Assembly: GCA_963559065.1 (NCBI GenBank)
Contig: CAUWIY010000006.1
Location: forward strand, 5,748-69,747
DNA from: an uncultured Clostridia bacterium
Lineage (GTDB): Bacteria; Bacillota; Clostridia; TANB77; CAG-508
Direction: 5' to 3'
DNA length: 64,000 nucleotides
Shown here: in pieces, positions 15,982-48,395 of the stretch
How positions within the stretch are numbered: position 1 is the first letter of the stretch
Layout: every line of letters starts with the position of its first letter
Position numbers and translations under genes: made by a program
Notes under the pieces: model-generated
Told to the model about the DNA's origin: nothing
What the model saw: only the letters and a program-made list of their open reading frames with translations
The model's database searches: none

Positions 15982-16037
15982 TTAATATAAGAAAGGAGTT
16001 TCGTATAAAATTAGATATTTATTATACGAGAAAAAAT

Positions 16038-26287: not shown

Positions 26288-26321
26288 GTAACAGTCAAAA
26301 AAATTTAAAAGGAGAAAACAT

Positions 26322-27224: not shown

Positions 27225-27228
27225 TAGA

Positions 27229-27262
27229 AAAAACCAATTATTAATCTTAATAATTGGTTTTT
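27229..27262. terminator. Bidirectional rho-independent terminator
   Basis: Perfect hairpin AAAACCAATTATTA-atc-TTAATAATTGGTTTT with flanking T-runs. Confidence 0.55.
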
Positions 27263-27292
27263 TCTATTCTACAAATTACTATATCCTCAAAA

Positions 27293-28516: not shown

Positions 28517-28527
28517 CTTTTATACTT

Positions 28528-29286
28528 TTACAAATTTTCTATTTCTAGTTCAACTGGACAATGGTCACTTCCCATTATTTCTGAATATATACTTGCTTCT
28601 TTTATTTTATCTTCAATTGATTTTGATACAATAAAATAATCAATTCTCCAGCCAATATTTTTTTCTCTTGCACGCCCCATATAAGACCACCAACTATACG
28701 CGTTTTCTTTATCTGGGTATAAAAATCGAAAACTATCTGTAAAGCCAGCATTCAACAATTCTGTCATTTTGTTTCTTTCTTCATCTGTAAATCCCGCATT
28801 ACCTCTGTTATTTTTAGGATTTTTTAGGTCTATTTCCTTATGCGCTACATTTAAATCACCACACATAATTACTGGTTTTACATTATTTAGTTTCAATAAA
28901 TATTTTCTAATTTCATCTTCCCAAATTTGCCTATATTCCAGTCTTTCTAATCCTCTCTTTGAATTTGGTGTATATATATCTACCATAAAAAACTTTTCAA
29001 ATTCTAAAGTAATTACTCTTCCCTCTTTGTCATGTTCCTCTATCCCAATTCCATATGTTACATTTATTGGTTCTATTTTAGTAAATATTGCTGTTCCAGA
29101 ATACCCCTTTTTTTCTGCACTATTCCAATAGCTTTTATATCCATCAAAATTTAAGTCTACTTGATCTGGCTGACATTTTGTTTCTTGAATACAAAAAATA
29201 TCTGCATCAACTGTTTTAAAAAACTGTTCAAATCCTTTTTGTAAACACGCTCTTATTCCATTTACATTCCATGATACAAATTTCAT
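28528..29286 (-). CDS. xth: Exodeoxyribonuclease III
   Basis: MKFVSWNVNGIRA.., and the C-terminal SDHCPV motif of the ExoIII/APE family. Confidence 0.9.
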   Translation of the reverse strand: MKFVSWNVNGIRACLQKGFEQFFKTVDADIFCIQETKCQPDQVDLNFDGYKSYWNSAEKKGYSGTAIFTKIEPINVTYGIGIEEHDKEGRVITLEFEKFFMVDIYTPNSKRGLERLEYRQIWEDEIRKYLLKLNNVKPVIMCGDLNVAHKEIDLKNPKNNRGNAGFTDEERNKMTELLNAGFTDSFRFLYPDKENAYSWWSYMGRAREKNIGWRIDYFIVSKSIEDKIKEASIYSEIMGSDHCPVELEIENL

Positions 29287-29432
29287 TAAAATCTCCTTTC
29301 TACTTTTTATTCTGTTTTACATTATATAAAAATAAAAGTGCACTCTAAATGTCAAATTTTGCTTAACATTTGAGGTACACTTAATTTTTATAATTTTTAA
29401 TCATTATATTTAAACCATTTGCTATATTAAAA

Positions 29433-30395
29433 TTATTTAGCAACACTAACTGGTAAATATCTGACACCCCATGCTAATGCTTCTGCATGTGAGTTTACAA
29501 ATATATCTATTTTATTTCCTTTAATTGCTCCACCTCTATCTTGAACTGTATATATATGCCCATTAATGTTTAACTTTGTTCCAAAAGCAAATTTTGATGA
29601 AGCCGCTACAGTTACACCAGCAGTAGCTCTTGCCCCTGAAGCAGTAATTCCGTTAGTTTTACCACAACATTTTGTACAAGGACAATATGCTGTTATTTTA
29701 TATATTTCTGTACCACTTCCACTTGGTACATTTGCTGTTCTTTCATTAATTCCAGACCTTGATGTTACAACTTTTTTATTTACTTGAACTATTTTGTTTA
29801 CTGGTTCTTTAATAATTTTTTCTGATAATTGAACTTTTTCTATTTCAACATCATTTTGATATTTTACTTTATAAGTTATTTCTTTTAGTCCGTCTTTTCC
29901 TTGTTTAATAACTTTATTTGTAGTATTTGTTGATGTCCCTGCTGTATTTTTTGTAATTGTTTCAAATGGTATAGCAACTTGCTCAACAACTATTTTTTCT
30001 GTAATTGGTGCATAATTATTCATTAATTGTTCTAATGTTGTTTCTACTCCTGTTTGAGAAACTTCTGCTATTTGTACTTCTGTATAAGATTTATCTACTA
30101 TTTTTATAATAGTACCTTCTTCTACTGTTTCTTCTAAATCTGGTAAAGTCTTTTCGTTTTCTTCTAATATAATGTTATTTTCTTTTAATATATCTTGTAC
30201 TGTAGATTTAGATGTCAAAGTTGTTAATTCATATCCGTTTTTTAAAATAATTTTAATATCCTTTAAGTTTGTATTAACTGCCATAACTCCTATTCCTGAA
30301 AGCAAAATTAAGATAAGACTAATACACATAATTTTCATTATAGAAATTGAAGCTTTTTCTTGATTTTTCATAAAAATATTTACCTCCTTTGGCAA
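29433..30395 (-). CDS. 3D-domain cell-wall protein (YuiC/MltA-like stationary-phase survival protein)
   Basis: C-terminal 3D domain (ITAYCPCTKCCGK...GAIKGNKIDIF) and an N-terminal signal anchor. Confidence 0.7.
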   Translation of the reverse strand: MPKEVNIFMKNQEKASISIMKIMCISLILILLSGIGVMAVNTNLKDIKIILKNGYELTTLTSKSTVQDILKENNIILEENEKTLPDLEETVEEGTIIKIVDKSYTEVQIAEVSQTGVETTLEQLMNNYAPITEKIVVEQVAIPFETITKNTAGTSTNTTNKVIKQGKDGLKEITYKVKYQNDVEIEKVQLSEKIIKEPVNKIVQVNKKVVTSRSGINERTANVPSGSGTEIYKITAYCPCTKCCGKTNGITASGARATAGVTVAASSKFAFGTKLNINGHIYTVQDRGGAIKGNKIDIFVNSHAEALAWGVRYLPVSVAK

Positions 30396-30684
30396 TACAA
30401 TTTATATTATATCATTTTTTTGCATTTTTGTCAAATTTGTCCAAAAACCGGATAGTGTCAATTTATTTCGGGAAATTTATTAAATTTTTCACATTTATTT
30501 TTTCAAAATTTTTTAGCTTGTTTCACTGAAGATTGTATATCATTCTGTTCTATTATATTCTTATTTACTAAAACTAGAACAGATTTTATAAATTAATATA
30601 TTTTTTAACAAAATGAATAAAAACATTGTATAATAAGTAATAATATGTTATGATATTTTCATAAATAAAAAAGGAGGCAATAAT

Positions 30685-31245
30685 ATGGGTTGGATTATAT
30701 TAATTATAGTAATTGCATTAATTATCTTTGTAATTTCAATGTACAATGGATTAGTATCTGCAAGAATAAAAGTAGATAATGCTTGGAGTCAAATTGATGT
30801 ACAATTACAAAGAAGATTTGACTTGATTCCAAATTTTGTAGAAACTGTAAAAGGATACGCATCACATGAAACTGAAACACTTGAAAAAGTAACAGAATTA
30901 AGAACATCTTGGACAAATGCTAATACAATTTCAGAAAAAGCAGAATTGGATAATCAATTATCAAGTGCGTTAAAAACAATTATGGCTGTATCTGAAAACT
31001 ATCCTGATTTAAAAGCAAATGAAAACTTTGCTCAATTAGCAGAAGAATTAAGAAATACAGAAAATAAAATTTCTTTCTCAAGACAATTTTATAATGATAC
31101 AGTAACAATGTATAATGAAAAATTACAAATTTTCCCTTCAAACATTATCGCTAATATGTTCCATTTTACTTCTCGCGACTTATTCACAACAGATAGTGAT
31201 GAAGCAAGAAAAAATGTAAAAGTTGATTTTGGAAAAAACGCATAA
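30685..31245 (+). CDS. lemA: LemA family protein
   Basis: N-terminal TM plus a LemA-conserved region. Followed by htpX, the usual pair. Confidence 0.85.
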
Positions 31246-31342
31246 ATAAAATTTTAGAAATTAAAATTTAAAAAATATCGCAATTTAAATATAGATAGGG
31301 GGTACTTTTTAAGTAGCCCTTTTCTGTAATAGGAGGTGTAAC

Positions 31343-32248
31343 ATGTTTAATTCAATAAAAAGAAATAAAAGAGAATCTGCAATAATTATCGGAATTTTTA
31401 TTATAACTATAACATTAATTGTATATTACATTTGTAATGCTCTTAATTTAGGTATGTTCTCTATAATAATTGCTCTAATGTTTTCAATAGGTAGTGCATG
31501 GGCTTCTTACTACTACAGTGACAAAATTGTATTAGCCTCTTGCAAAGCAAGACCAGCAACCAAAGAAGAAGATTTAAAACTTGTTAATATATTAGATTCT
31601 TTAATGGTTACAGCAGATTTACCAAAAAAGCCTGATTTATATATCGTTGAAGATTCTCAGCCAAACGCATTTGCAACAGGAAGAAATCCTGAGCACGCAG
31701 TTGTTTGTGTAACAACTGGATTATTAGAAAAATTAGATTACTACGAACTAGAGGGTGTTTTAGCTCATGAAGTTAGCCATATAAAAAATTATGATATTCT
31801 ATTAAGTGCTGTCGTTTCTGTTTTTGTAGGATTTATTGTTATGATTTCTGACTTATTCTCAAGAGCTGTTTTTTGGGGAGGTTTAAGAGATAATGATGAT
31901 GATAATAGCAAAGCAAACGGTATTTTAATGTTATTAGGTCTTGTTTTCTTAATATTATCACCAATATTTGGTACACTAATGCAATTAGCACTATCTAGAA
32001 AAAGAGAATTTTTAGCAGACAGTACTGCTGTTCAATTAACACGTAACCCTGATGGGCTAATATCAGCATTACAAAAATTAGAAAGTGACCCAAATGAACT
32101 AGAAGTTGCAAATTCTGCAACAGCAAATATGTATATTGTAAATCCATTTAAGAAAAATGGTCAAAGAGGAAAAAGAAAAACTTCTAACATTTGGTCTACA
32201 CACCCAAGTACAGCAGATAGAATTGATGCTTTAAGAAATATAAACTAA
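31343..32248 (+). CDS. htpX: Zinc metalloprotease HtpX (M48 family)
   Basis: HEVSHIKNYD HExxH motif and TM topology. Confidence 0.85.
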   Translation: MFNSIKRNKRESAIIIGIFIITITLIVYYICNALNLGMFSIIIALMFSIGSAWASYYYSDKIVLASCKARPATKEEDLKLVNILDSLMVTADLPKKPDLYIVEDSQPNAFATGRNPEHAVVCVTTGLLEKLDYYELEGVLAHEVSHIKNYDILLSAVVSVFVGFIVMISDLFSRAVFWGGLRDNDDDNSKANGILMLLGLVFLILSPIFGTLMQLALSRKREFLADSTAVQLTRNPDGLISALQKLESDPNELEVANSATANMYIVNPFKKNGQRGKRKTSNIWSTHPSTADRIDALRNIN

Positions 32249-32329
32249 ATTTTAAAATTTTATATAAAAAACCAACACTAAATTCTAATAGTGCTGGTTT
32301 TTATTTTGTTTTAATTTTTTTATATTTTT

Positions 32330-33154
32330 TCATATATTTTTAATATTAAATACTTTACATGTATTTTCAAAAGTCACTTTTGCAATTTTTTCAATTGGTT
32401 CTTTTTTTACATCAGCAATTTTCTGTGCAACATATTTTACATTTGCTGATATATTTCTTGTCCCTCTAACAGGTTCAGGAGCTAAATATGGGCTATCTGT
32501 TTCTATTAATAATTTATCTTCAGGAACTAACTCAATAATTTCATTAGCATTTTTTGAATTTTTAAAAGTAATTGGCCCAGCAAAAGATATATAAAACCCA
32601 AGTTTTAAAGCCTCTTTTATTAGTTCTCTATTCTGTGGGCAACAGTGAAATACTCCTCTATTTCTTACTTCATTATTTTTCAACACATCGATTGTATCCA
32701 TAACAGCTTCTCTTGTATGAATAACAATTGGCAAATCAAATTCATTTGCTATTTTTATTTGTTCCACAAAAGCTTTTTTCTGCAATTCTTTGTTATCAGT
32801 ATTCCAATAGTAATCTAAACCAATTTCTCCAATAGCTATAACTTTATCTGTATTTTGACTTACTATTTCTCTAATTTTATCAAGCTGTTTCCACAACTCT
32901 TCCTCATTTTGTGGAATATCATTTGGAGAAACGCCACAGGTTGTGTACATAAATTCATATTCTTTAGCGATTTTAAGTGCTTTTATTGAACTTTCTACAC
33001 TATATCCCGCTGTTATTAAATTAGTCACATTATTTTTTAAATTTTCTTGTATAACTTCTTTTATATCTTTATCAAATTTCTCGTCATTTAAATGACAATG
33101 ACTATCAAATAATTTATACATAATTTTTATCCTTTCTACTTCTTGTTTATTCAT
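32330..33154 (-). CDS. tatD: TatD family metal-dependent DNase/hydrolase
   Basis: N-terminal FDSHCHL and TIM-barrel metallohydrolase motifs. Confidence 0.85.
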   Translation of the reverse strand: MNKQEVERIKIMYKLFDSHCHLNDEKFDKDIKEVIQENLKNNVTNLITAGYSVESSIKALKIAKEYEFMYTTCGVSPNDIPQNEEELWKQLDKIREIVSQNTDKVIAIGEIGLDYYWNTDNKELQKKAFVEQIKIANEFDLPIVIHTREAVMDTIDVLKNNEVRNRGVFHCCPQNRELIKEALKLGFYISFAGPITFKNSKNANEIIELVPEDKLLIETDSPYLAPEPVRGTRNISANVKYVAQKIADVKKEPIEKIAKVTFENTCKVFNIKNI

Positions 33155-35061: not shown

Positions 35062-35123
35062 GGTATCCTCCTTTTACGTATCTAATATAGCACAAAACAT
35101 TGACTTTTTCAAGTGATATAAAA

Positions 35124-37628
35124 CTACAATGTAATTTCTGGATTATCTTCTAATATTTTATCTACTATATTTTCACCTATTTTAAAAGCTGTAACATATC
35201 CTTGTAAATAATTTGCTTTATCTTTTAAACTCTCATTTTGAACATTGACATATATTTTAGATTTTCCCTTTCCATTTTTAGCCTCTTGCACTAAATTTAA
35301 TACTGGAGAATTACCATCAAGAGCTATAACAATTGAACTTCTTCTTTCAAATATTTCATAGTTAAAACTCTTATATATTCCAAATTCTTCACTTTCAGTT
35401 GATATTCGTATTCCATCTACTCCTTCTCGCATTAGCTTCATAGCATTTTCCATTAATATCATTTTTGGAGCAACTGCATATATCTCAAATTTTTTGTCTA
35501 TTTTCTTTGCAATATCTACTATTGCCTTTTCATATCCTTCCATTTTATGTCCAATTACAAAATACGCTTTGTTATTATCTACTTTATTCATTAATTCTTC
35601 TAATACAGAAATTTGATTATCATCTAATAATGTCTTTACACCTTTGGCATTAAAACTTCCTCCAGCAATAATTATAGGAACTTTATCATCTGGCAATTCT
35701 CTTATTTTTTTCTTTAATATTTCTTCTGATTCTACCTTATTGTTTAATCTTAGTTTTATTTTACGATTTTTACTTTGAAAATCAATTTCTTCTTCTAAAT
35801 CTAATAATGACTCTCTTATTGTTCTTCCCGCTAAGAATTCCTCGAACTTTTTACTTTTTTCTTTAAAGTATTTTTCGGAATTTGCTATAATTTCATTTTC
35901 AACAGTTCTCATTTTTTGAAAATCTTCATACTGTAATCCCAATAAATTTTGCAATGCTAATTGCTCATCAATAGTATCTATTCCATAAAAACCGCATCCA
36001 TCTGTACCTTGTACACATTTTATATCATTTTCCAAATATGTTTTTAAAGGATGATTTTCTAATGTAGTTAAATTATTTAATCTTACATTAGATGTTAATT
36101 GAAACTCAAGCACTCCTCCTGTATTTTTTATCTCTTTTATTAGTTCTTTACCCTCTCTTGAATTTAAATCAGCTGTGTAAAGTCCATGTCCAATTCTGTA
36201 TTTTGGCATTTTCTGACCAGGCTTTAAGCTTTCTTTTATACATTGTATTGATTTTGACACATTGCTTCTTAAACTATCATTTTCTCCCGCATGTATTCTA
36301 ACTGTAAAATCATTATCTTCGGCACATACATACTGCACTATTTCTTCTATAACCGGCTTTAATTCAGAAATATCATTAATTTCTTCTCCTATGAAATCAC
36401 TTCCTACTACATATGGACTTTTTGCAATTGCTTTAAGTACATTTAAGTTTTCACGCAAATATGTATCACTTGTTTGTATATCTTTTATTATAGTAAGAAT
36501 AATTCTTCTTATTCCAATTAAAAATCTAAGTTTAACACCTGTTTCTTCTTCTATTTTAGGCATTATTTCGTGTATTTCTTCTAATAATTCAATAGCTGGT
36601 AATCCTTTTTTAGCCAAAGTTGTGTCTGTTATTTCAGAATAATAAATACCTTGTTTTTTATATTCTCTCGCAATCCACAATAATTTATCTTGCATTAAGG
36701 AATTATCTTTATATATGCTGTCATTTGCTTCATCATCTAACATTTTTAACAATGTTTGTTTAATACTATTATCTGGTATATTTAAATATTTATATATGTC
36801 TACATCTATTTTTTCTTTACTTTCAATCCCTTTTGTAAAAACATACCTATATATGTACAGTTTTTCCAAGTTTGTAAAAACCGCTTGACCATCTTTAAGC
36901 ATTTCTAGGCTTTTACTTATTTTTCTTATATTTTCTTCAGCATTATCTAAATTATTTAAAATTAAATCTGCAAAATTAATAAATGTATTATCATCTATTT
37001 TTCTTGTTAAGTATTTTCCTTTTAATTCTGAATTCTTAAATAATTTTGCAACTTCTTCTCTTTGCTTATAAATTTTTTCTTCTTGCTCTTGTGTTAAAAC
37101 AATATTTAATTTCTTTACATAATACAGTGGATATTGGATTTGATGTTTTAGTCCCAATGCTATTAAACAATCTGATGGTAAGTTTGCATTCATGTGTGTA
37201 TGTAAATCAGTTCTAAATTTTAGTTTTTTTAATATATATGATTTTACTATTGTTTTGTTAATATCTAGTTTATAGTTTTTAGTTTGAGACATTAGAACCT
37301 TACTAATTGTCGGAATTTTTGCTTTTATTTCTATCTTTCCATTTGTATAAATATTTGCAATTTTTATTCCTCCTAGTCTAAATATGTAAACTTCTTCATT
37401 GTCTCCATTTATACTTAATGGTATTGTCCCTGATATTATTTTCATACCTTTTTCGTTTTTTATAGTTTTTACATCACAGATTTTAGCTATATTCGTTATT
37501 AAATTTCCGGTGTTGTGATTTGGCGTTTCTAATATATACTTTAGTTCATCATCTTTTTCAAATAAGTTTACTACTATGTCTTTTTCTTTGTCTAAGTAAA
37601 ATTTTCCCTGTATTTTGCTTTCTTTCAT
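35124..37628 (-). CDS. Adenosine/AMP-deaminase-fold (metal-dependent amidohydrolase) fusion protein with an N-terminal extension and a C-terminal Rossmann-like (SLOG/LOG-like) domain
   Basis: ADA catalytic motifs in the correct order, DLHTHMN (HxH), VRIHAGE (HAGE) and QGTDGCG (catalytic Asp), with extra domains of about 130 aa at the N-terminus and about 270 aa at the C-terminus (PIIIAGGSFNAKG..YFVIGHKMEGYE). Confidence 0.55.
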   Translation of the reverse strand: MKESKIQGKFYLDKEKDIVVNLFEKDDELKYILETPNHNTGNLITNIAKICDVKTIKNEKGMKIISGTIPLSINGDNEEVYIFRLGGIKIANIYTNGKIEIKAKIPTISKVLMSQTKNYKLDINKTIVKSYILKKLKFRTDLHTHMNANLPSDCLIALGLKHQIQYPLYYVKKLNIVLTQEQEEKIYKQREEVAKLFKNSELKGKYLTRKIDDNTFINFADLILNNLDNAEENIRKISKSLEMLKDGQAVFTNLEKLYIYRYVFTKGIESKEKIDVDIYKYLNIPDNSIKQTLLKMLDDEANDSIYKDNSLMQDKLLWIAREYKKQGIYYSEITDTTLAKKGLPAIELLEEIHEIMPKIEEETGVKLRFLIGIRRIILTIIKDIQTSDTYLRENLNVLKAIAKSPYVVGSDFIGEEINDISELKPVIEEIVQYVCAEDNDFTVRIHAGENDSLRSNVSKSIQCIKESLKPGQKMPKYRIGHGLYTADLNSREGKELIKEIKNTGGVLEFQLTSNVRLNNLTTLENHPLKTYLENDIKCVQGTDGCGFYGIDTIDEQLALQNLLGLQYEDFQKMRTVENEIIANSEKYFKEKSKKFEEFLAGRTIRESLLDLEEEIDFQSKNRKIKLRLNNKVESEEILKKKIRELPDDKVPIIIAGGSFNAKGVKTLLDDNQISVLEELMNKVDNNKAYFVIGHKMEGYEKAIVDIAKKIDKKFEIYAVAPKMILMENAMKLMREGVDGIRISTESEEFGIYKSFNYEIFERRSSIVIALDGNSPVLNLVQEAKNGKGKSKIYVNVQNESLKDKANYLQGYVTAFKIGENIVDKILEDNPEITL

Positions 37629-37829
37629 ATGACATTCCCCTTTTTATAATTTTATAAATTGTTAATTCAATATTTTATCATATTTTATTAAGTTTTTCAA
37701 TTATTTATGTTGACTTTTAAAATTAATTTAGAACCATTTGTGTTGTTATATGTTCAAATAATAATAAAAAAGAATCAAGTTATATAATAATTTCTATTAT
37801 ATAATTGACTCTTTTTTATTGTTTTATTT

Positions 37830-39233
37830 TTACCAATATGTCTGCACTTCACTTAGGTCATCATCAGAACACCAAAGTTCATATATATTAAATGTTCCTG
37901 TACCTCTGCTTCCATAACTAGACATACTAAATTTACATTTTACAGCTCCTTCTGGAACTATATGGCTAACAGTTGTTAATTGATCTAGCTTTGTATATGC
38001 TGCATTTCCCCAACCGCCACCAGATAGTACCTTTCCATTTTTATCTTGAAAATACATAAATCCATATAGACCTCCTTTCCATAATCCTGATGCTTTAATC
38101 GTCATGTATTTCCCCCAACATGAGGGGTCTATATTTAGATAGTAAATTTGTTTTGATGAATTTAAGTAAAAGTCTGTTGTTTCATTTTTATCATAAGCAA
38201 ACTTACCTAGTGCATCTATAGCTAACTCTTCTGGTTCAACGACTCCGTCAGATGTTAATTTTGCATATTCTCCCGTTAGTGTCGTTACATTAATCGTTTT
38301 TGATTGTGTTTTATTTCCAGCTTTATCATATGCTATAACATATATGTTATAATTAGTATTTCTTGATAGTTCCTTAAACGAATAATTTGTTTCATGTGAT
38401 TCATATTTTCTATAATTAGATACTGTAGCTTCTTTTATATAATATTCATACTTATCCATTCCACTTTTTGCATATTCTGCAGTCTCTTCTGTATCTTCTG
38501 TATTAATACTAATGTTAATATATTTACTTCCAGTTTCAGAGACATTGACTGTAACGTCTTTTGGGGCTAATTTATCTATTTTGTTTACCTCCACATTTTT
38601 AGTTAATGTTGCCCCTGTAGTATCTGTTATTGTAAATTCATAACTTCCATTTTTATTTATTGTATATGTTCCATCACCATTACTAGTTAGTCCTTCCGGT
38701 GCTTGTATTTTTGTTATTTCTCCATTTGAAGACGATACATCTATTGTTAGTTTTACATTTTCACTTGTAAACACTTTCGGTTCTAATTTGTAACTAAATC
38801 TTATTCCTTTTATTTTACCTTCTATTGTTACATTTAGATTTTCGTCTATACTATAATTATAGTCCTTATATTCTCCTATTATCTCATTATTGGATAATTC
38901 TGCTGTTATTCCATCTAATTTTTCTTGTAATTGTCCTCCTACCAAACTTTCTAATGTCACTTCATTTCCTTTTGGCACTTGATCAATTTGAATATCCATT
39001 ATTGCCATATCAATTTCTTCTTTTAATTGTCCTTTTATTGTTTTTTCTTCTGCTTCCTTTGCTCTTGCAAACAAACCATTTTCTCCTGTTAATGTCGCTA
39101 TTGTTATTCCTGCTAAAATAAGCAAAATTATTATTGTTATTACTAGAGCAATTAGTGTTATTCCTTTTTCTTTATAAAATTTAGTATATTCTTTGTCCGT
39201 ACTTCTACTTAAACTTTTTCCTATGTTTATCAA
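37830..39233 (-). CDS. Surface-protein paralog with prepilin-like N-terminal anchor, shared 130-aa module, FN3-like domain and a C-terminal beta-sandwich domain
   Basis: N-terminus KGITLIALVITIIILLILAGITIATLTGENGLFARAKEAEEKTIKGQLKEEIDMAIMDIQ... is nearly identical to the 39263 gene in protein and DNA. Has an SD with an apparent TTG start. Confidence 0.6.
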   Translation of the reverse strand: MINIGKSLSRSTDKEYTKFYKEKGITLIALVITIIILLILAGITIATLTGENGLFARAKEAEEKTIKGQLKEEIDMAIMDIQIDQVPKGNEVTLESLVGGQLQEKLDGITAELSNNEIIGEYKDYNYSIDENLNVTIEGKIKGIRFSYKLEPKVFTSENVKLTIDVSSSNGEITKIQAPEGLTSNGDGTYTINKNGSYEFTITDTTGATLTKNVEVNKIDKLAPKDVTVNVSETGSKYINISINTEDTEETAEYAKSGMDKYEYYIKEATVSNYRKYESHETNYSFKELSRNTNYNIYVIAYDKAGNKTQSKTINVTTLTGEYAKLTSDGVVEPEELAIDALGKFAYDKNETTDFYLNSSKQIYYLNIDPSCWGKYMTIKASGLWKGGLYGFMYFQDKNGKVLSGGGWGNAAYTKLDQLTTVSHIVPEGAVKCKFSMSSYGSRGTGTFNIYELWCSDDDLSEVQTYW

Positions 39234-39262
39234 TTTTCAACTCTCCTTTTTATCCTATTCTA

Positions 39263-40915
39263 TTAATATTCCCATGAATATTCTCCACCATATACTCCTA
39301 AGTTTGATTGACTTCCATCTGGATTTACTCCTGTTCCAACATTTTTCCATTTACTTTCATCATCTGTTATTCTATATGTTGATGTATCTACTTTTGGTGT
39401 TGATGTAATATAATTTGTTTTGTAGTTCCACTTATCATCTGTTGTATCTCCATATACTGAAGAAGTAAATCCACCATAACAATTTGTTAGTTTTATTGAA
39501 CCTCTATCTGTTCTAATCATTGAAGATACATTATTTAAAAGAGTACAATTATTCAATTTATAAGATGATTCCCATGGTATAAAATATGATGCACCTGCAT
39601 TATTTGGCATATTTCTTAATATAACAGCATTTAAAGCAATATCATTCTTAGTAAATATTGCATTTCCTGTAGTAAAATCTTTTGCATCCCATATTAATCT
39701 ATAAATATTTACAGAATAATCTCTACTTCCTCCTCCTTTGTTTGCATATAATCCATTTACTTTTAATATCGTTTTTTCTTTTTGTCCGTATATATTAATA
39801 CTTTGATTACAATTAAGTTCAAATAATCTAGTATTTAAATTGTATTCTCCTTCATTTAGCTTTATATCATATTTTATACCTCGTTCTACAATTCCATTTT
39901 GTGCTATTTTATCTAAAGTTGAATATGGTTTTTCTTTTGTTCCATCACCATTCTCATCACTACCATTAATAGCATCTATATATATTTCTTTAAAACCTAC
40001 CTCTGTATCACAAAATACAATCTCAGAATTTTTACTATTATTTGCCCTATCATAAACAACAACATATATACTATATCTAGTACCTGGTTTTAAATTTGTT
40101 ATACTATATTTTGCTTCATTAGTTTCGTATTTAGTATAGTCCTTCTCTGTCTCCTCTTTTATATAATATTCATATTTTTCTATTCCACTTTTAACATTTT
40201 CACTATCTGCTTCCGAATCCTTTGCATTTGCAGTTATTGTTACACTATAACCATTTATATGTGCTTCTGGGGTAAAATCTACTGGTTCTAATTTATCTAT
40301 CTTATTTATATTTAATATTTTTGTCAGACTTTCTCCTATACTGTCTGTTATTGTAAATTCATAACTTCCATTTTTAGCTATTGTATATGTTCCATCATCA
40401 TTTGCAATTAATCCTTTAGGTACTTCTATATTCGTTATTTTTCCATTTGACGATGACACCTCTATCGTTAGTTTTATATTTGCATTTGTATATCCTTGTG
40501 GTTCTAATTTATATCTAAATCTTATTCCTTTTATTTTATCTCCTATTGTTACATTTAGTTTTTCATCTATGCTATAATTATAATCCTTATATTCTCCTAT
40601 TATATCATTATTGGATAATTCTGCTGTTATTCCATCTAATTTTTCTTGCAACTGTCCTCCTGCCAAACTTTCTAATGTCACTTCATTTCCTTTTGGCACT
40701 TGATTAATTTGAATATCCATTATTGCCATATCAATTTCTTCTTTTAATTGTCCTTTTATTGTTTTTTCTTCTGCTTCCTTTGCTCTTGCGAATAATCCAT
40801 TTTCTCCTGTTAATGTCGCTATCGTTATTCCTGCCAATATTAATAAAACTATTATTGTTATAACTAGAGCAATCAGTGTTATTCCATTTTTATTAAAAAT
40901 ATTTTCTCTCATATC
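39263..40915 (-). CDS. Surface-protein paralog (same N-terminal 190 aa as the 37830 gene) with a different C-terminal domain. The likely true start is at 40915; the ORF-table start at 41002 is probably too far upstream.
   Basis: SD AGAGGGGtagat ATG immediately before MRENIFNKNGITLIALV... The C-terminus is rich in Tyr/Asn/Gly (jelly-roll/lectin-like?). Confidence 0.6.
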   Translation of the reverse strand, partial: DMRENIFNKNGITLIALVITIIVLLILAGITIATLTGENGLFARAKEAEEKTIKGQLKEEIDMAIMDIQINQVPKGNEVTLESLAGGQLQEKLDGITAELSNNDIIGEYKDYNYSIDEKLNVTIGDKIKGIRFRYKLEPQGYTNANIKLTIEVSSSNGKITNIEVPKGLIANDDGTYTIAKNGSYEFTITDSIGESLTKILNINKIDKLEPVDFTPEAHINGYSVTITANAKDSEADSENVKSGIEKYEYYIKEETEKDYTKYETNEAKYSITNLKPGTRYSIYVVVYDRANNSKNSEIVFCDTEVGFKEIYIDAINGSDENGDGTKEKPYSTLDKIAQNGIVERGIKYDIKLNEGEYNLNTRLFELNCNQSINIYGQKEKTILKVNGLYANKGGGSRDYSVNIYRLIWDAKDFTTGNAIFTKNDIALNAVILRNMPNNAGASYFIPWESSYKLNNCTLLNNVSSMIRTDRGSIKLTNCYGGFTSSVYGDTTDDKWNYKTNYITSTPKVDTSTYRITDDESKWKNVGTGVNPDGSQSNLGVYGGEYSWEY

Positions 40916-41047
40916 TACCCCTCTTTTCTTTTGAATATCTAAAATAATTCTATCACACCAATTTTTCCTTTGCAAGCATTTTGCAATTGTTTTTAAGTGC
41001 ATATTAAAATACTTTTTTATTATAAAATACGTGCAGGAGGTAAATTT

Positions 41048-41239
41048 ATGAACAAATTAAAAATTCCAGAAAACCATAGTGGTATAAGTAAAACTCTTCG
41101 CCTACCTGAAAATATTGTTGATGACGTACAACGTTTAGCTGATTTAAAAAATTTGTCTTTTAATAAAACTATTATTTCATTAATAGAATTTAGTCTTGAC
41201 AATTTAGATGAAAATGACAAGATAAAAATACATAATTAA
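41048..41239 (+). CDS. Small ribbon-helix-helix (CopG/Arc-like) DNA-binding protein, 63 aa
   Basis: SD GCAGGAGGtaaattt ATG. A beta-strand plus two helices (SKTLRLPENIVDDVQRLADLKNLSFNKTIISLIEFSL), divergent from the 39263 gene. Confidence 0.4.
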   Translation: MNKLKIPENHSGISKTLRLPENIVDDVQRLADLKNLSFNKTIISLIEFSLDNLDENDKIKIHN

Positions 41240-41532
41240 ACAAGCACTCTATAGTTTTTTATTTATAATACAATATTATGCTTCTTTATTTTTATATTTC
41301 TATAATTTTAGAGGCTACATATAACATTTCTTAGCTCAATTTTATTTCATGAAATTTGTGTACAATTTTACACAAAAAGAGCATGAAAGTATTTATATAA
41401 AACTTCCGTGCTCTTTCTTTTTCCAACATTCAAAAACGACATTCTTAGATTTTTTATATTTTTAATTTTCAACCATTTAAACAACGTCCACATTGGTTTT
41501 TTATCTTGTTTTTTTATTTTAATTTTATTGCT

Positions 41533-43959
41533 TTATTTTTTTAGGAATTTGCATGTAATTATGCTCATGTCGTCTTTGGCTGTTCCATAGTTGTTATCTA
41601 TTGCTTCTCCCAATATTAGGTCTGATATTTTTTTTGTGTTTGTTGTTTCTATGTCTTCTAACATGTATTTTACCCAAAGTTCTTTGTTTTTGTATTCTAT
41701 GTTTGAGTCTAATATTCCGTCCGAACATAAAAGCATAATGTCTCCTTCTTCTATGTCTTTGTCAAATGATTGTATTTGTACTTCTTTTACTATTCCTGCT
41801 GGTAAAGAATTTGATTTTATAATTTGAATTTTCTTTCCATTTTTAATGTAAGTTGGGCAAGCTCCATTTTTTATTAGTTCTATGTTCCCCTGATATAGGT
41901 CTATTATTGCAACATCTAATGTTGCAAATATTTCTTCATTTTGATTTATTAGACTTGTATTTATTAATTCTAATGATGTTTTTTTGTCAAACCCTGATAA
42001 TAATAAATTTTCTAACATTTTTAAAGCTTTTATGCTACTTTGTTTTGCTTCTTCTCCTGAACCCATTCCATCACTTAAAGCTACCAAATATTTTCCATCT
42101 TTTAAACGAATATTTAAAATACTATCTCCTGACATTTCTGATTTGTCTTTAGTTTTTTCTGCAATTCCAATTGCCATTACATATTTATCATCAGATAAAA
42201 ATCTTAGTCTTGTCCCGATACTTGCTTCTTCATAAAATACTATTGGCTCTTTTAAAATAGTAGAAAGAATTTTTTCAATTGCCTCTATATCTGTATTGTT
42301 TGATTTCTGCATATATATTTCAATTAAAAATCTTTCTTCTTTTTGGATTGATACTTCTTGTATTTCAATTTCTTTTTGCTTTAATAGTTCTACTATTTGC
42401 TTTTTCTCTTGTAAAAATTGTTCTTCGTTTTCTATATTTTTTTCTATATTTTCTGCAATATCAGATATTGCCTTTGAAACACCTTGTAACTGTGTTTCCA
42501 TATTTTTTTTGTTTTCTTCAAATTTCTTTTGCCATACAAAATTAGACTTACTTATTTTATATGACATATTTATAACTCTTACCATTTGCATAATATTTTC
42601 TTCTAAATATTGGCTTATGTTTTTATCATCAAAACCAACTATGTAACTATTACAATCAGCAAAAATTTTTAATAAATCTTCTCTTGTTATCTGTTGTTTA
42701 TCTAATAATAGACTAAATATTTCATCAACAATTTTTCCTTCTGTATTAGATAAATCTTCGTATAACATATTATTTTCATATCCGTTCAAATTATCAAGTA
42801 ATTCATTTATAAAAATATCTTTATTATTAATTATTGTTTGACTATTTTCTATTTCTGCATTTTCTATTTTATAAATACTTGCCATTTCTTGTATTGTTTC
42901 TGAAACATTATTTAGTCTCTCTGCTGTTTCTTTGCTTTTGTTTAAAGCTCTTTCTGGAAATACTGGTAAAAATTTTGAATTTCCCATAAATTCTTCTATA
43001 TCAATTTTCATTGATTTAGGAACTGCCAATAATCCAACTGAAGCAATTAATATTTCTTTGAAGTGAATTAATTCTACTGTATATCCATTAGAAACATATG
43101 CTAACACTACATTTCCTAAGCAAAATCCTACAATTACTCCTATTTTTCCAAATTTATTTAATATTCCGGCTATCATTCCTGATATTGCATATGCTGCAAC
43201 CATAATTGGGTCAGATGATGTTATAACTCCTAGCGTTACTCCAATTGTAACACCTGCTGTTGTTCCAACTAATACCCCATTTTTCCATCCTAACACAAGA
43301 ACAATTAATATACTCAAAATATTTCTAATAGAAAATCCAAAAGCTTGTATATCTCCAAAAGCTGTAACTGCAATTGATAACATCAAACTTGCCCCTAATA
43401 TTTCTTCAATAGAAAAAGCTTTTTGTTCTCCAAACTCATTTACTACAGATATAGAATTTACAAATATTTTATAAAACACTACTATAATAATTGAAAAAGA
43501 AATTAATGATAATATATCATATAGCGTAAACATTGACATTCCTATTTTCGCTAATCCTATTACTATTGTTGAAATAAATAAATTTTTTGCCAATTTTATT
43601 TTTTCATTTTTTTCTTCATCTGTATATCTTGGTTTTATAAAAAACATTGTAACAACAACTAATAAAGTTGTTAATAAATATGTTAAAGCACCACTTACAC
43701 CAAATTTTATTGCATTGCCTAAAACACCAAAAAATACAATTCCTAAAACAGGAACTGAATTTGCTAAACATGCTCCAAATATACTAATACTAAACGGAGA
43801 TAAATCTCCTGTTATTCCTACCATTGATAACATAAATGTCATAATATAAATTGGTATATTTTTTAAATCAAATACATCTGCAAATATATTTGTTTTTTTA
43901 TTTCGATTTTCTTTTATATTTATTGTTGATTCATCTATGTTTTGAAACATCCTTACCAC
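41533..43959 (-). CDS. spoIIE: Stage II sporulation protein E (PP2C-type phosphatase with a 10-TM N-terminal domain)
   Basis: Polytopic N-terminal half plus PP2C motifs (LSDGMGSGEEA, ATLDVAIIDL, KNGACPTY, LLCSDGILD). Confidence 0.85.
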   Translation of the reverse strand: MVRMFQNIDESTINIKENRNKKTNIFADVFDLKNIPIYIMTFMLSMVGITGDLSPFSISIFGACLANSVPVLGIVFFGVLGNAIKFGVSGALTYLLTTLLVVVTMFFIKPRYTDEEKNEKIKLAKNLFISTIVIGLAKIGMSMFTLYDILSLISFSIIIVVFYKIFVNSISVVNEFGEQKAFSIEEILGASLMLSIAVTAFGDIQAFGFSIRNILSILIVLVLGWKNGVLVGTTAGVTIGVTLGVITSSDPIMVAAYAISGMIAGILNKFGKIGVIVGFCLGNVVLAYVSNGYTVELIHFKEILIASVGLLAVPKSMKIDIEEFMGNSKFLPVFPERALNKSKETAERLNNVSETIQEMASIYKIENAEIENSQTIINNKDIFINELLDNLNGYENNMLYEDLSNTEGKIVDEIFSLLLDKQQITREDLLKIFADCNSYIVGFDDKNISQYLEENIMQMVRVINMSYKISKSNFVWQKKFEENKKNMETQLQGVSKAISDIAENIEKNIENEEQFLQEKKQIVELLKQKEIEIQEVSIQKEERFLIEIYMQKSNNTDIEAIEKILSTILKEPIVFYEEASIGTRLRFLSDDKYVMAIGIAEKTKDKSEMSGDSILNIRLKDGKYLVALSDGMGSGEEAKQSSIKALKMLENLLLSGFDKKTSLELINTSLINQNEEIFATLDVAIIDLYQGNIELIKNGACPTYIKNGKKIQIIKSNSLPAGIVKEVQIQSFDKDIEEGDIMLLCSDGILDSNIEYKNKELWVKYMLEDIETTNTKKISDLILGEAIDNNYGTAKDDMSIITCKFLKK

Positions 43960-44177
43960 CTCTTAAACTTTTTATAGCATTATTCTACTACTTGTCCTTA
44001 GCAATTTTTGTCTTTTTTAGCACATAAATTTAAAAAAGTTTTTTACAATTTGTGATATTTAATATGAAAAAATCCAAATCTATTCCATATTATGCTCTTT
44101 ATTCTATTATAATTTGATGAAAAAAGCAATATTCTAAGCCAAATTTAATATTTCTTGTAATCTGTGCAACAAAAAAT

Positions 44178-44240: not shown

Positions 44241-47200
44241 TTATTTATTATCAATTACTTTTTTCTTGATAATTATAATTCCTACTCCTAAGATTACAAA
44301 AGCCGTTATTCCAATTATAATTGGTGTCACATAATTTCTGTTTTCTCCAGTGCTTGGTATAATTGTAACCTCTTCTGCTTCATCTCCAGGGAAGTATTTT
44401 ACAATACTACCTGTAGGTTTGCTTGAATCTTCTGGCTTATCTATCTTAACAGTTTCTGCCTCATTATCAAATGTCAAATCATCTGTTGTTGTCAATAATT
44501 TAGATATATTCAAATCAACAGTTTTTGTTTCTGTTGGTTTTAATGGTACTGCTGTTTCCTCTGTATATAAAATTGTCTTAGAATTTATATAATCTGGATT
44601 TCCTAGTTCAAATCTTACAGGATTTAATTCTTTTAGTTCTTCTAATGTAATTTGTTTCCAATAAGAATTTTTACTTTGCTCAAATACTAAGTTAGCATTC
44701 AAGTAATCAACTACTGCTGATGGTGTTAAAGTTACAGGATCTCCTGTTATAATTCCATATTTGTAATAGTCTTCTGACATATATTCAACTTCACTATTAT
44801 TAATTGCTTTAATTTTATATACTAACTCTAATGTTGCACCTTCTAATAGTTCATTATCTATCTCAGCTTTTATATATCCATTATCTTTAATTCCATTATT
44901 TACACTAGGTTTCATATAAGTAACATGATTATGAGAACCTTGTAAATTTCCATTTTCATCAATTGTTGCATCTGCTAATATTTGACCATTTGCCAATGTT
45001 ATTTTAAATTTGCTTACTCTTTTTGTCATATCTAATTGTTGTCTTGCTCTTTCCACAATTCCAAAATCAACATTTGGTATTGTAAATTTAATTTCATCTT
45101 TTGTTCCAACAGTTTCTGTTGTTTCATATTCTACACTAAATTCCATTGTTGGTGTAACAGAATTCATAGATGTTATAATTCCATGTGGATTTTCTCCATT
45201 ATATGCTTTTTCTACAACATCATAAACAGTACTGTCTGTATATTCTTTAGCTATTTGCTTATCAATTTCTAGTCTTTCATTGTAATTATCAATTGCATCT
45301 GTATATCTTGGTTCATAAGAAAATTCATTATCTTTATACCAATACATATTTGATTGATTTCTATTAGGTTGATAAATTGTTCCTTTATAATTTTGAACTT
45401 TATATGTTTTATCTCCCCATGTATATGTTACAGTATATTGACCAGGAATATATCCTGTAAATACAAAGTTTCCATCTTCTCCTGTAACAAAAGTCATATC
45501 AGGTATTGAATTATTTAATTCATGTAATGTAACTTTTACTCCTGGAATTGTTTTCTCTCCATTTTCAAATATTCCGCTTCCCTGTCTTATTTCTCCTGTA
45601 AGTAAATTATCATTAGTAGTATCTAAAAATACTGTTCCTTTTATTTCTCTTGCATCTACTAATTCTAATTGGATTGATGGTGCTGCATCAATATCATCTT
45701 CATAAGTATTAACTGTTCCTATAACTGAGTTTCCTGGAACTGAATCCTTATCTATTGCAGCTACTGTCTTTCCATCTTTGTATACTGTATAAGAATTAAC
45801 TTCTGAAACATTATGCAAAGTTTCTTTGTTATTAACTATATTTAATACAGCTTCTCTGTTTAACTTAAATTGTACAAAAATGTAATTTGTACTATTTGCC
45901 TGAATTGTTGAATTATTGTATATTTTAATTTTTTGATAATCATTATTGTACATTTCTGGAGCATCATTGTTAAATCTACCTGTTATTTCATTTCTATCAT
46001 TTACTCCTGTACCTGCTGCTACAAATTCATATCTATTATCAAAATAATCTACAATATTATTAACTCTTGTTACATATGATGATTCATTTTTTAAACCTAT
46101 TTTATAAGTCAAATACACTTGCATTTCTTTGCTTGTATCATTTGGATTTTGGTATTCATAATCGGCTTGATATACAGCTCTTTTATATGTTTCTGAATAT
46201 CTATCTTTAAATTTTACACCAACATTCCAAGAAGCAGAATTATCTGTAAATACCCCATTTTTATTTTGCTCATTAAATCTCTTTCCATAATTATAAATAT
46301 GCCAATATCCATTAACTCCAATATTTACATTTGCTAAATCTTGTGCTAATGCTATATCTGCTTGTGGTTTTTCATATAATCCTAAGTTGATATATTTTAT
46401 TTCTTCCATAGTTGGTTTAAAACTATTGTGAAGATTGTAATTTGCATCTCTTGTATTTGCATGTACAATACAATCACTTTCATCTCTAACAAAATTTACA
46501 CTATTTTGTGTTTTTGTTGTTTTTTCTACTATAGATGTTGCATGATTTACTGTATTATTATAATAAATATTATAAGTTCCATTATTTACATTAACTTGAT
46601 TTTTTCCTGTAGAATCAACACTTGTAAAGTTTCTATCTAGTACTTCTCTTTCTACTCTATCTGTTGCTTTAGATGCGTTATTTTTTAATAAATCAATTAC
46701 TGCTACACTTTGGTAAACCAATCCATCATATTCAAATTCTACATAGTAGTTTGGAAGTTGATCAATTGTAACATATTCAAAAATATATTCTCCACCATTG
46801 ATTTCTCCATACAATCCTCTTTCTCCAGATTTTATCTCTTGATAATTTCCATTTAGCTCTGTACTATGTTTACTTCCTGCTCTTACTATATTTCCATCTT
46901 TATCTTTTAATCTAACAGTAATGTTATTAAAAGGTATATCCTTATTATCAAAATTATCATTTTTATAATATTCATTTCTTACATTCATTTTTTCAGACTG
47001 TATATCATCCCATATATATCCTGATAATTTTACATATCTTTGATAATTAGTAATTTTAGTTATTCCATCATATTGATACGGTATTGTTATAATTTTCTGT
47101 TCTTCTACAACATACCCATAATGTGGGTTTATTACTTCAATTGCTTCATAATTTGCAATTAAAACTCCATCTACTTTTATTTTACCTTTACTATCTGTAA

Positions 47201-48395
47201 AGAAAACTGTTGCACTATCTCTATCAGGTACATATGATATTCTGCCTCCCGTTTTCTTTACATATCTGTTCATTTCCTTATTTCTTAGAATAAATCCTAC
47301 ACCATCTAAAGGAATATTTTCATCTCTTGAGTCTGTTTTTTGGATTTCAATTTCTTTTGTCAAATCAATATTATAGTTAAATTCATTCCAATATATATCT
47401 GGAAAATAACCTTTAACTGGTTTTACTAATAATATATTTTGTCCAGTAGGACTTACTAAAAACCACACATGTGCCTCATACTTAATTTTTATTGGAATTT
47501 TAACCCCTACCCTTACTTTTCCAAGGCTAGTATAATTTTCATCCATTTTTAAATTAATATAAAAATTTTCTTGTGTTTTTATATCATTTTTTCCAAAGAA
47601 GATTTCTGTTGTTCCTTCATATTTGCTAAACACTATATTAGACTCTGGAATTCTAGCACCATCTACTGTATAAATTTCTAAGTCCATAATATCTCCACTA
47701 AATTTCCAGTTAAATGGTCCAATTCTTTGGTATCCTTCTCCATTGTATACATGTGGTACAACTGATAAATTAGAAGTATTTGTGTTATCTGAAATAGTAA
47801 TACCATTTACAGTTACATCATATAATACATCTCCATACTCTTTTGCTTGATCATATAATTGTTGTCCATCTGGTCCTAATTGTACACTTTCATTAGCTGC
47901 AAAAGCCTCTGTAACTGGACCTTGTTGATTATACAAATACAGATTTGGAACTACTATATTTCTATACCATTGATTATATGTGTGATATAAAGCTTGTTGC
48001 CCTGGTCCATATTGTCCAATTCCTGTTCCATATCCATTTCCATAATTAGTACCTGCATATAAAATATATGATAACATAGCACCTAAAGCTGATGGTGATT
48101 TATCAAATGTTGCTGTATCATAACATCCATTAAAGTGCATATATTTTGCAACTCTATATTCTGCAACATTAAATGATACTCCATGCTGAATACAATATAA
48201 GTCATTTCTTGATACAAGTTCTGATTCAGCTATATTAACATATTTTCCAACACTATTATCTGTACCCAAGTTAAAAAGAATTTGATCAAGTGATAAATAA
48301 ACTTTGTCATCCGCATGAACCTTTGTTGCAAAGAGTATAATTGATAATAACATTGTACTTATTAATATTAAAACTCTCTTCATTGTTTTTTGCAT
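44241..48395 (-). CDS. Giant (1384 aa) cell-wall-anchored adhesin-like protein with a signal peptide, a possible N-terminal thioester-like domain, Cna-B/prealbumin-type domains, and a C-terminal sorting signal IPSTGE plus hydrophobic stretch plus KKK tail
   Basis: SD GGAAAGGAGGaaaagaa ATG. Cna-B-like TGEDGNFVFTGYIPGQYTVTY. C-terminus ..IIPSTGENRNYVTPIIIGITAFVILGVGIIIIKKKVIDNK. Confidence 0.7.
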   Translation of the reverse strand: MQKTMKRVLILISTMLLSIILFATKVHADDKVYLSLDQILFNLGTDNSVGKYVNIAESELVSRNDLYCIQHGVSFNVAEYRVAKYMHFNGCYDTATFDKSPSALGAMLSYILYAGTNYGNGYGTGIGQYGPGQQALYHTYNQWYRNIVVPNLYLYNQQGPVTEAFAANESVQLGPDGQQLYDQAKEYGDVLYDVTVNGITISDNTNTSNLSVVPHVYNGEGYQRIGPFNWKFSGDIMDLEIYTVDGARIPESNIVFSKYEGTTEIFFGKNDIKTQENFYINLKMDENYTSLGKVRVGVKIPIKIKYEAHVWFLVSPTGQNILLVKPVKGYFPDIYWNEFNYNIDLTKEIEIQKTDSRDENIPLDGVGFILRNKEMNRYVKKTGGRISYVPDRDSATVFFTDSKGKIKVDGVLIANYEAIEVINPHYGYVVEEQKIITIPYQYDGITKITNYQRYVKLSGYIWDDIQSEKMNVRNEYYKNDNFDNKDIPFNNITVRLKDKDGNIVRAGSKHSTELNGNYQEIKSGERGLYGEINGGEYIFEYVTIDQLPNYYVEFEYDGLVYQSVAVIDLLKNNASKATDRVEREVLDRNFTSVDSTGKNQVNVNNGTYNIYYNNTVNHATSIVEKTTKTQNSVNFVRDESDCIVHANTRDANYNLHNSFKPTMEEIKYINLGLYEKPQADIALAQDLANVNIGVNGYWHIYNYGKRFNEQNKNGVFTDNSASWNVGVKFKDRYSETYKRAVYQADYEYQNPNDTSKEMQVYLTYKIGLKNESSYVTRVNNIVDYFDNRYEFVAAGTGVNDRNEITGRFNNDAPEMYNNDYQKIKIYNNSTIQANSTNYIFVQFKLNREAVLNIVNNKETLHNVSEVNSYTVYKDGKTVAAIDKDSVPGNSVIGTVNTYEDDIDAAPSIQLELVDAREIKGTVFLDTTNDNLLTGEIRQGSGIFENGEKTIPGVKVTLHELNNSIPDMTFVTGEDGNFVFTGYIPGQYTVTYTWGDKTYKVQNYKGTIYQPNRNQSNMYWYKDNEFSYEPRYTDAIDNYNERLEIDKQIAKEYTDSTVYDVVEKAYNGENPHGIITSMNSVTPTMEFSVEYETTETVGTKDEIKFTIPNVDFGIVERARQQLDMTKRVSKFKITLANGQILADATIDENGNLQGSHNHVTYMKPSVNNGIKDNGYIKAEIDNELLEGATLELVYKIKAINNSEVEYMSEDYYKYGIITGDPVTLTPSAVVDYLNANLVFEQSKNSYWKQITLEELKELNPVRFELGNPDYINSKTILYTEETAVPLKPTETKTVDLNISKLLTTTDDLTFDNEAETVKIDKPEDSSKPTGSIVKYFPGDEAEEVTIIPSTGENRNYVTPIIIGITAFVILGVGIIIIKKKVIDNK

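Follow-up and report, generated by a model that had tools for sequence, protein, structure and literature searches.

The locus

The subject of this report is a pair of adjacent genes, here called A and B, in a stretch of 64,000 nucleotides (nt) of DNA from an uncultured Clostridia bacterium; the whole stretch is called the window, and its first letter is position 1. The two genes lie head to tail on the minus strand, with B upstream. The first-pass annotation, made from the letters of the window and its open reading frames (ORFs), took them to be tandem paralogues with a common N-terminal anchor and head and differing C-terminal modules, and the ORFs, the BLASTN alignment and the protein alignment all agree with that description. 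The features on which the argument depends are the following, where N1, Ig-like and FN3 are successive domains of the encoded proteins.

39263..40912, minus strand: gene B, 549 amino acids (aa), its exact sequence present in public gene calls
37830..39233, minus strand: gene A, an ORF of 467 aa, its exact sequence present on 15 public contigs
39234..39262, minus strand: spacer of 29 nt between B and A, carrying the ribosome-binding site (RBS) AAAGGAGAG of A and no terminator
40947..40975, minus strand: promoter-like site TTGCAA-17-TAGAAT with extended TG, from a consensus scan
37760..37825, minus strand: AT-rich inverted repeat followed by a run of T, right after the stop codon of A, read from the sequence
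40048..40904, minus strand: full homologous region, copy 1, in B (anchor, N1, Ig-like and FN3), delimited by BLASTN and the gradient of identity
38324..39182, minus strand: full homologous region, copy 2, in A, delimited in the same way
40542..40789, minus strand: putative gene-conversion tract, B copy, 96% identical to that of A, its 5' 84 nt (40706-40789) fully so
38821..39068, minus strand: putative gene-conversion tract, A copy, of which 38985-39068 is identical to B and is the crossover interval
38612..38615, minus strand: run of four G in A, five in the one-gene strain described below, where it frameshifts the chimeric gene

Gene B starts with ATG at 40912, preceded by AGAGGGG, and gene A with TTG, 8 nt after its RBS. 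The public gene calls hold the 549-aa form of B together with the 467-aa A; a longer, 579-aa ORF for B is not among them. Since the spacer contains no terminator, B and A are probably co-transcribed. The promoter-like site lies about 35 nt upstream of the start codon of B, but sites matching this consensus are not enriched relative to shuffled sequences, so the site is weak evidence for a promoter. At the other end, the AT-rich hairpin, which gives a self-complementary match at 37760-37823 in the alignment output, is probably the terminator of the operon; a scan demanding a G+C-rich stem found no terminator at the locus.

Shared DNA and gene conversion

The two copies of the shared DNA line up in register, 1721 nt apart. 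They had been described beforehand as some 400 bp of 5' DNA about 95% identical. The near-identity stands at a somewhat lower value, 92.4% (29 mismatches in 381 nt) between 38800-39180 and 40521-40901, and the shared 5' DNA is indeed there but was cut too short, for BLASTN aligns 38324-39182 with 40048-40904 over 863 columns at 80.8% identity. The identity is far from even along this length. It is complete over the 84 nt at 38985-39068 (40706-40789 in B), 96% over the tract 38821-39068 as a whole, and 72-83% over about 480 nt more, downstream of the high-identity core. The proteins agree at 69% of positions across residues 19-321 of A, and the only unrelated parts are the C-terminal ends, 146 aa long in A and 243 aa in B. 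An identical run of 84 nt did not appear in any of 100,000 shuffles of the columns of the whole alignment, and even when only the first, best-conserved 480 columns are considered, its probability is 0.0024.

The same unevenness is seen in synonymous divergence (dS), estimated by the Nei-Gojobori method along the codon alignment of A and B. Through residues 19-57 of A, comprising the leader and membrane segment, dS is 0.455, with amino acids almost invariant; it drops to 0.118 in residues 58-137, where none of the approximately 23 synonymous sites of residues 60-99 has changed, and rises to 0.83 in residues 138-321, several 20-codon windows of which are saturated. By Fisher's test the core differs both from what lies downstream (p = 2e-6) and from what lies upstream (p = 0.018). 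Within N1 the proteins of A and B are 91-92% identical to each other, while neither exceeds 76% identity with any homologue from outside, whereas their Ig-like and FN3 parts, at 54% identity, are no closer to each other than to homologues from other organisms. Because this last figure is at the outside level and dS there is near saturation, the comparison shows A and B to be, judged by their divergence, old paralogues. Selection acting on the protein alone cannot erase synonymous differences, so conversion is the simplest reading: the alignment shows a tract of about 250 nt in N1 that was homogenised recently by gene conversion between these old paralogues. That the shared DNA might be a substrate for recombination had been proposed from its similarity, and the patch of near-zero synonymous divergence, as the mark of gene conversion, bears the proposal out.

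Homogenised N-termini were also considered as a general property of tandem pairs in this family, and the idea was rejected. A pair in a related species (locus L039, 9250-10617 and 10814-12256) shows the opposite mosaic, with 82% DNA identity in its C-terminal FGE/SUMF1-like domains and only 72% in its N-termini.

A natural one-gene recombinant

Exact sequence look-ups place the species of the window in public assemblies; one 93-kb contig (L098), for example, is 100% identical to the window from 37000 to 44000. A search among strains for a recombinant junction, the check that the first-pass annotation had in mind, finds one in four public assemblies: L100 (ERZ27274745), L101 (GCA_022675345.1), L102 (SRR16235408) and L103 (ERZ25038820). 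Each of these carries spoIIE, the gene of a probable ribbon-helix-helix (RHH) regulator that precedes B in the window, and a single gene of the A/B family. When the single gene is aligned with both A and B, the sequence is of B type at essentially all informative sites from the RHH gene to 40790 (corresponding to 39069 in A), apart from a few that match neither copy, and from 40705 (38984 in A) onward it is of A type at every site. The crossover therefore falls inside the 84-nt identical tract. On this alignment a sister strain is shown to carry a single chimera, 5' from B and 3' from A, with the crossover site in the same N1 tract that was converted. Recombination between the two genes has two independent lines of support, the dS profile and this chimera.

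That the source is a sister strain is judged from the similarity of what surrounds the junction. The spoIIE flank of the four contigs has about 8 mismatches to the window in 1.7 kb (about 99.5% identity), and the part of the chimera derived from A has 8 substitutions in about 1.3 kb. Relative to the window, the one-gene allele differs by exactly the 1.72 kb that lie between the repeats. The chimeric gene is also broken: the run of four G at 38612-38615 has become five, and the resulting frameshift splits the gene into ORFs of 227 aa and 254 aa.

Ordinary recombination and its alternatives

The reading we prefer, at a probability of about 0.72, is that B and A together form an operon encoding two accessory proteins of the cell envelope, both modular, in an uncultured gut Clostridium that forms spores and has 27% GC, and that both the conversion and the chimera came about through ordinary recombination rather than a programmed switch. 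The two genes would carry differing C-terminal modules behind a common leader, hydrophobic segment, N1, Ig-like and FN3 domain. An unequal crossover between the direct repeats of N1, presumably through homologous recombination of the RecA type, would lose the body of B and the head of A, 1.72 kb in all, and leave a single gene with the 5' part of B and the 3' part of A. The event would have taken place within an accessory islet of fast turnover, with no programmed switch involved. Since recombination between direct repeats is a deletion, it would be irreversible without the excised DNA.

Some parts of this account could be explained otherwise. Perhaps the near-identity of the 5' module reflects purifying selection alone, owing for example to a shared interaction surface, and no part of the family is in fact more conserved than N1, where many residues are invariant. 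We find this scarcely credible, however, given that the synonymous sites are identical as well (dS 0 to 0.12 in the core), that the membrane segment just upstream, invariant in amino acids, has a dS of 0.43-0.46, and that homologues from outside fall so far short in N1. Or perhaps the one-gene allele is an artefact, the repeat having collapsed during assembly through a jump from B to A within the identical tract. The repeats do break assemblies here (L099, L105, L107 and L113 start or end inside A or B), and one of the one-gene contigs has only 2.8x coverage. Against this, the identical junction occurs in four assemblies with four different sample or assembly accessions; the names of the contigs suggest more than one assembler, including an assembly at k = 141, longer than the 84-nt tract; the one-gene contigs carry private single-nucleotide polymorphisms and an indel relative to the two-gene strain; and fragments of the body of B are recorded only from samples other than the four one-gene ones. 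An assembly artefact is unlikely, and in our estimate very much so. A gain instead of a loss deserves more weight than either of these, though it too seems unlikely. According to this alternative the one-gene allele is ancestral, and the strain of the window took up the body of B and a second head through Campbell-type integration of circularised DNA by way of N1 homology, in the manner of module displacement. The chimera is exactly the gene expected before such an integration, and the site is a hotspot of insertion, an IS91-like transposase (15538-16710) lying at the site in locus L017. Also, the leader of A is atypical, consisting of 22 aa plus Gly with a TTG start (39183-39233, minus strand), against a norm in the family of mostly 6-14 aa, and it fits a secondary 5' end. 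But the end of that leader, KFYKEKG, resembles the short leader MKFYKKNKG of a relative (P0033), a likeness suggesting that A formerly stood on its own as a gene, with a start codon to itself; the sequence suggests that A may have lost its original ATG (now ACT) and taken up the upstream TTG in its place. Moreover, an integration requires more steps than an unequal crossover, the route by deletion taking a single one, and it is the one-gene lineage in which decay is seen.

There is also the possibility, raised in the first-pass annotation, of cassette switching that underlies antigenic or adhesive variation, the common 5' module acting as a recombination handle that chooses which C-terminal cassette is expressed. 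The conserved 5' part with variable 3' parts, the existence of a conversion tract and the occurrence of a chimeric allele in nature are all consistent with such a program, as is the finding that at this site, in different species, the same unit of promoter, RHH gene and N-terminus bears differing C-terminal modules. The machinery of a program, however, does not appear. Promoterless silent cassettes are absent: the two genes are complete and co-oriented in one operon, each with an RBS and a start, and tblastn of the window found no further partial or truncated silent copies of A or B. Direct repeats yield deletion and not reversible exchange. A repeat scan found no invertible element, the sole inverted repeat being a weak pair of 37 nt with 73% complementarity, and no recombinase or invertase is among the neighbours (spoIIE, the RHH gene, the deaminase-domain gene and the WG-repeat gene). 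No long simple-sequence tract is nearby; the only run is that of four G at 38612-38615, G4 motifs not having been specifically searched. The recombinant gene is frameshifted. And the two-gene allele does not vary among the contigs that carry it, at least 15 in number: A and B are identical in every residue on 15 of the 15, the six contigs of the two-gene type that were aligned (from three accession series) match the window at 100% DNA identity, and the only variant seen is the deletion chimera. The proposal of a programmed switch must be judged quite improbable, and the suggestion of cassette switching is not supported.

Several considerations weigh against ordinary recombination in an envelope-protein operon, the reading preferred here. 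No difference separates the four one-gene contigs, which represent one lineage and may go back to a single clone, or even to a single sample that was assembled four times. An ancestral one-gene allele, with the two-gene allele arising from it by Campbell-type insertion, could give the same sequences. The comparison of alleles is a comparison of assembled contigs, and low-frequency switching within a strain would lie below that level. That the proteins would be held at the cell surface by their N-terminal segment follows from the types of their domains only. To these may be added the results of the comparisons with pilins, given below.

Protein architecture

Both proteins open with a hydrophilic leader whose last residue is Gly; after it comes ITLIALVITII(I/V)LLILAGITIATL, and the hydrophobic segment reads ITLIALVITIIILLILAGITIA. 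The leader of B is short, MRENIFNKN-G, that is, nine residues plus Gly. An AlphaFold2 model of A (mean pLDDT 87) has helices at residues 23-49, 54-88 and 94-105 and then a four-stranded sheet at 112-140, which together make up the head N1. Beyond N1 the model has an Ig-like domain (144-216), an FN3 domain (228-317), which is backed by a PDB profile search and by Foldseek, and a C-terminal beta-sandwich (325-456). The full model gives only generic Ig/FN3 matches in Foldseek searches of PDB and BFVD, and with Pfam and NCBIfam A and B give only sub-threshold matches of FN3/Ig type. Sequence and profile searches with the C-terminal module of B (243 aa) found no Pfam or PDB match; its first residues may resemble the start of right-handed beta-helix proteins. 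Homologues of this module are found in 10 of 120 listed family members and are 48-64% identical where tabulated. From this arrangement, the Ig-like and FN3 domains behind the head N1 would form a stalk that presents differing binding or enzymatic modules at its end.

The family is large. A search with A gives more than 4000 matches that share the N-terminal 300 residues and vary in their C-terminal domains (DUF6273, RCC1, LamG-type and FGE-like among them). A profile of the N-terminal 145 residues matches 32,791 representative clusters at E <= 1e-3 and 21,897 at 1e-10. Wherever the sources give names, members are called 'hypothetical protein', and a literature search found no paper on the motif ITLIALVIT and no relevant one on conversion of tandem pilin genes in Clostridia. 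Since only 12 loci among 2.9 million viral contigs have the N-terminal motif and PHROGs gives only weak matches, to small hydrophobic proteins, the family is mainly cellular rather than carried by phage. Scans of JGI metagenomes with A and B found no close relatives. A third member lies elsewhere in the window:

4186..6393, minus strand: third family member, 735 aa

In this protein the residue ahead of the hydrophobic segment is Ala, not Gly, and the C-terminal region is long and repetitive, with the look of a beta-helix; other samples contain close variants (P0127 and P0128).

Are the proteins pilins?

By the published definition, a class III signal is a leader whose last residue is Gly or Ala, with a stretch of 21 hydrophobic residues behind it (PMC8179133). 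In the family, 81 N-termini were compared, of which 80 could be scored. Their leaders are short (mostly 6-14 aa, as noted) and hydrophilic and end in Gly (68 of the 80) or Ala (12); that of B is of this length, and that of A is longer. Right after the putative cleavage site come 21 to 22 or so mainly hydrophobic residues that open a long helix, with I-T-L at positions +1 to +3 invariant or nearly so. At position +5, however, where pilins would have Glu, there is none: the residue is Ala in 71 cases, Ser in 7, and Val and Thr in one each. The Pfam model N_methyl (PF07963 / IPR012902) matches 33 of 36 N-termini at E <= 0.1, the best at 3e-5, and gives A a score of 16.3 to 18.5 bits, below the cut-off of 21.2. 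The commonest NCBIfam matches, far below the curated cut-offs, are to GspG, ppd pilin, PilA and ComGF, and there are weak matches to the N-termini of geopilin and MshA. The N-terminus is, then, pilin-like as regards its sequence.

It is possible, though we would lean against it, that A and B are true subunits of the type IV pilin kind, cut by prepilin peptidase after the Gly and situated on a filament or at its tip, each paralogue contributing a different tip module. The form of the leader and hydrophobic segment, the pilin models that are the commonest matches and the resemblance to geopilin and MshA speak for this idea, and so does the order of secondary structure in the AlphaFold2 model of N1 (long helix, short helix, four-stranded sheet), which is pilin-like. 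The loss of Glu5 would be as in the capping subunit of pilus tip complexes, which lacks it (PMC10191384). On the other side, and counting also against the wider reading of the locus preferred above, all scores with hidden Markov models of pilins are under the curated cut-offs; Foldseek of the model of the N-terminal 145 residues against PDB found nothing better than E = 0.5 and no pilin; and the 64 kb of the window contain no pilus genes, among them those for a prepilin peptidase, an assembly ATPase and a platform protein, nor were pilus genes seen within 10 kb of the members checked in other genomes. Minor pilins do not usually number three in 64 kb, or some 33,000 clusters overall. The data are accounted for equally well by a simple membrane anchor at the N-terminus that stays uncleaved, and such an anchor is at least as likely as a substrate of prepilin peptidase. 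Short members consisting of N1 only, situated in pilus operons, were also sought, and this was not supported at the two loci checked.

A bolder extension, which we consider improbable, would make of the N-terminal module a very large class of proteins in gut Clostridia (about 22,000-33,000 clusters at 50% identity) with class III signals that lack Glu5. Processed by prepilin peptidase, they would serve as carriers, placed either on the tip of a type IV filament or in a surface assembly like a bindosome, and N1 would act both as the interface of assembly and as a recombination handle, by which paralogues and strains acquire, shed and trade C-terminal modules for binding or enzymatic activity.

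Context and turnover of the locus

The surroundings of A and B were compared in 80 related species, in 60 of which both spoIIE and the WG-repeat gene are visible. The WG-repeat gene follows spoIIE within 400 bp in 44 of the 60. In the window, the site between the two (35062-41532) holds an islet of 6.5 kb made up of the RHH gene, B, A and an 834-aa gene with a deaminase domain. The first of these is divergent from the others:

41048..41239, plus strand: RHH gene, 63 aa, present in public gene calls

It gives weak PHROG matches to Arc-like repressors, on which basis it is a probable regulator of the ribbon-helix-helix (Arc-like) type. The gene is 84-86% conserved in L017, L005 and L006, where it again stands beside a family member.

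The nearest genome is that of Clostridium sp. CAG:575 (L030), whose SpoIIE is 90% identical. It has kept the deaminase gene, and in place of 37730-41152 of the window it has about 970 bp, in which the RHH gene is truncated and another family member survives only as a remnant of 117 aa. Homology resumes at 37729, just past the probable terminator of A. The site in L017, L005 and L006 is occupied by the RHH gene and a family member with another C-terminal module, L005 and L006 running off the ends of their contigs at this point. In L115 there are two short genes, the first of them a family member, and no RHH gene is called. At the other loci examined, family members sit singly between housekeeping genes. 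By this comparison the site between spoIIE and the WG-repeat gene is evidently an accessory locus of fast turnover.

The four one-gene contigs all end just downstream of the terminator of A (at 37669-37783 of the window), where the homology to CAG:575 resumes (37729). The shared end may be a junction that varies among strains or a break in the assemblies.

The 834-aa protein (35124-37628, minus strand) matches adenosine deaminase only in residues 319-574; the N-terminal 300 and C-terminal 250 residues have no match, and PADLOC and PHROG give none for the protein. Its gene adjoins spoIIE only in the window and in CAG:575 among the 80 related species, and it is a second accessory gene of the same islet. 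Nor did PADLOC match A, B, the RHH gene or any other neighbour tested with it, and a known defence system is thus ruled out for the locus. Just upstream of spoIIE, on the minus strand, are two giant proteins with SpaA/SdrD_B/DUF11 domains, of 1384 aa (44241-48395) and 1637 aa (48412-53325), conserved in position and only 27-63% identical across related species. Farther away, a 479-aa protein (2126-3565, minus strand) has as its sole match a PYRIN/DAPIN death-fold (E = 6.5e-4, 20.3 bits, against a cut-off of 22.9), and no PADLOC match.

Comparison with known systems

The finding on A and B belongs to the gene conversion and unequal crossing-over of tandem paralogues. The RecA-dependent concerted evolution of tandem bacterial paralogues produces the same mosaic of identity, with a tract of near-zero dS in older paralogues, and the same deletion allele, its junction in the longest identical stretch; there is no essential difference. 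Other systems resemble the locus in part. In the pilE/pilS system of Neisseria, promoterless silent cassettes donate sequence non-reciprocally to one expression locus, from an initiation site that depends on a G4 structure and a small RNA. There too, pilin-like paralogues with conserved 5' sequence undergo homologous recombination, but silent cassettes, a dedicated initiation site and a single expression locus are not present at A/B. The polymorphic toxin loci Rhs and CDI undergo C-terminal displacement. Like A/B they have a conserved N-terminal region, exchangeable C-terminal modules, tandem remnants and fast turnover among strains; unlike them, A/B has no toxin or immunity genes, and A, which lies downstream, retains an entire N-terminus together with a start of translation of its own.

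With respect to the N-terminus, archaea use a pilin-type signal to tether or assemble diverse extracellular proteins, do not require Glu5 and have a dedicated assembly system. The likeness lies in a pilin-type signal on functionally diverse proteins with no need of Glu5, and the difference in that no evidence of an equivalent assembly system was found here. The modular type IV pilins, such as PilB and PilC of Streptococcus sanguinis (Raynaud et al. 2021, PMC8179133), likewise have a short leader ending in Gly or Ala, about 21 hydrophobic residues, and a small N-terminal module with diverse modules grafted onto it, in an architecture that is widespread. The present family differs in having Ala or Ser in place of Glu5 in 78 of 80 N-termini, in its sub-threshold IPR012902/N_methyl scores, and in showing no pilin fold by Foldseek and no pilus operons. 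Finally, the capping minor pilins without Glu5 (GspK/PilK; PMC10191384) also combine a pilin-like N-terminus lacking that residue with a bulky extra domain. The family here has no similarity to GspK in sequence or fold, no partners of the H/I/J type nearby, and many paralogues per genome.

Significance

The recombination itself is of the textbook kind: tandem paralogues swap sequence and sometimes collapse. What is useful is that public data contain the junction that had been predicted, and that it could be mapped to an interval of 84 nt. The most interesting by-product is the size of the family combined with its anonymity, a huge set of unannotated, modular envelope proteins in uncultured gut Clostridia, in which a pilin-type N-terminus is joined to swappable C-terminal modules and the genes lie in islets of fast turnover between core genes. 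If the modules truly serve adhesion or the capture of substrates, then their gain and loss at the level of strains would add to the differences in niche among gut strains. And if the proteins are true substrates of prepilin peptidase, the repertoire of modular pilins would grow considerably.

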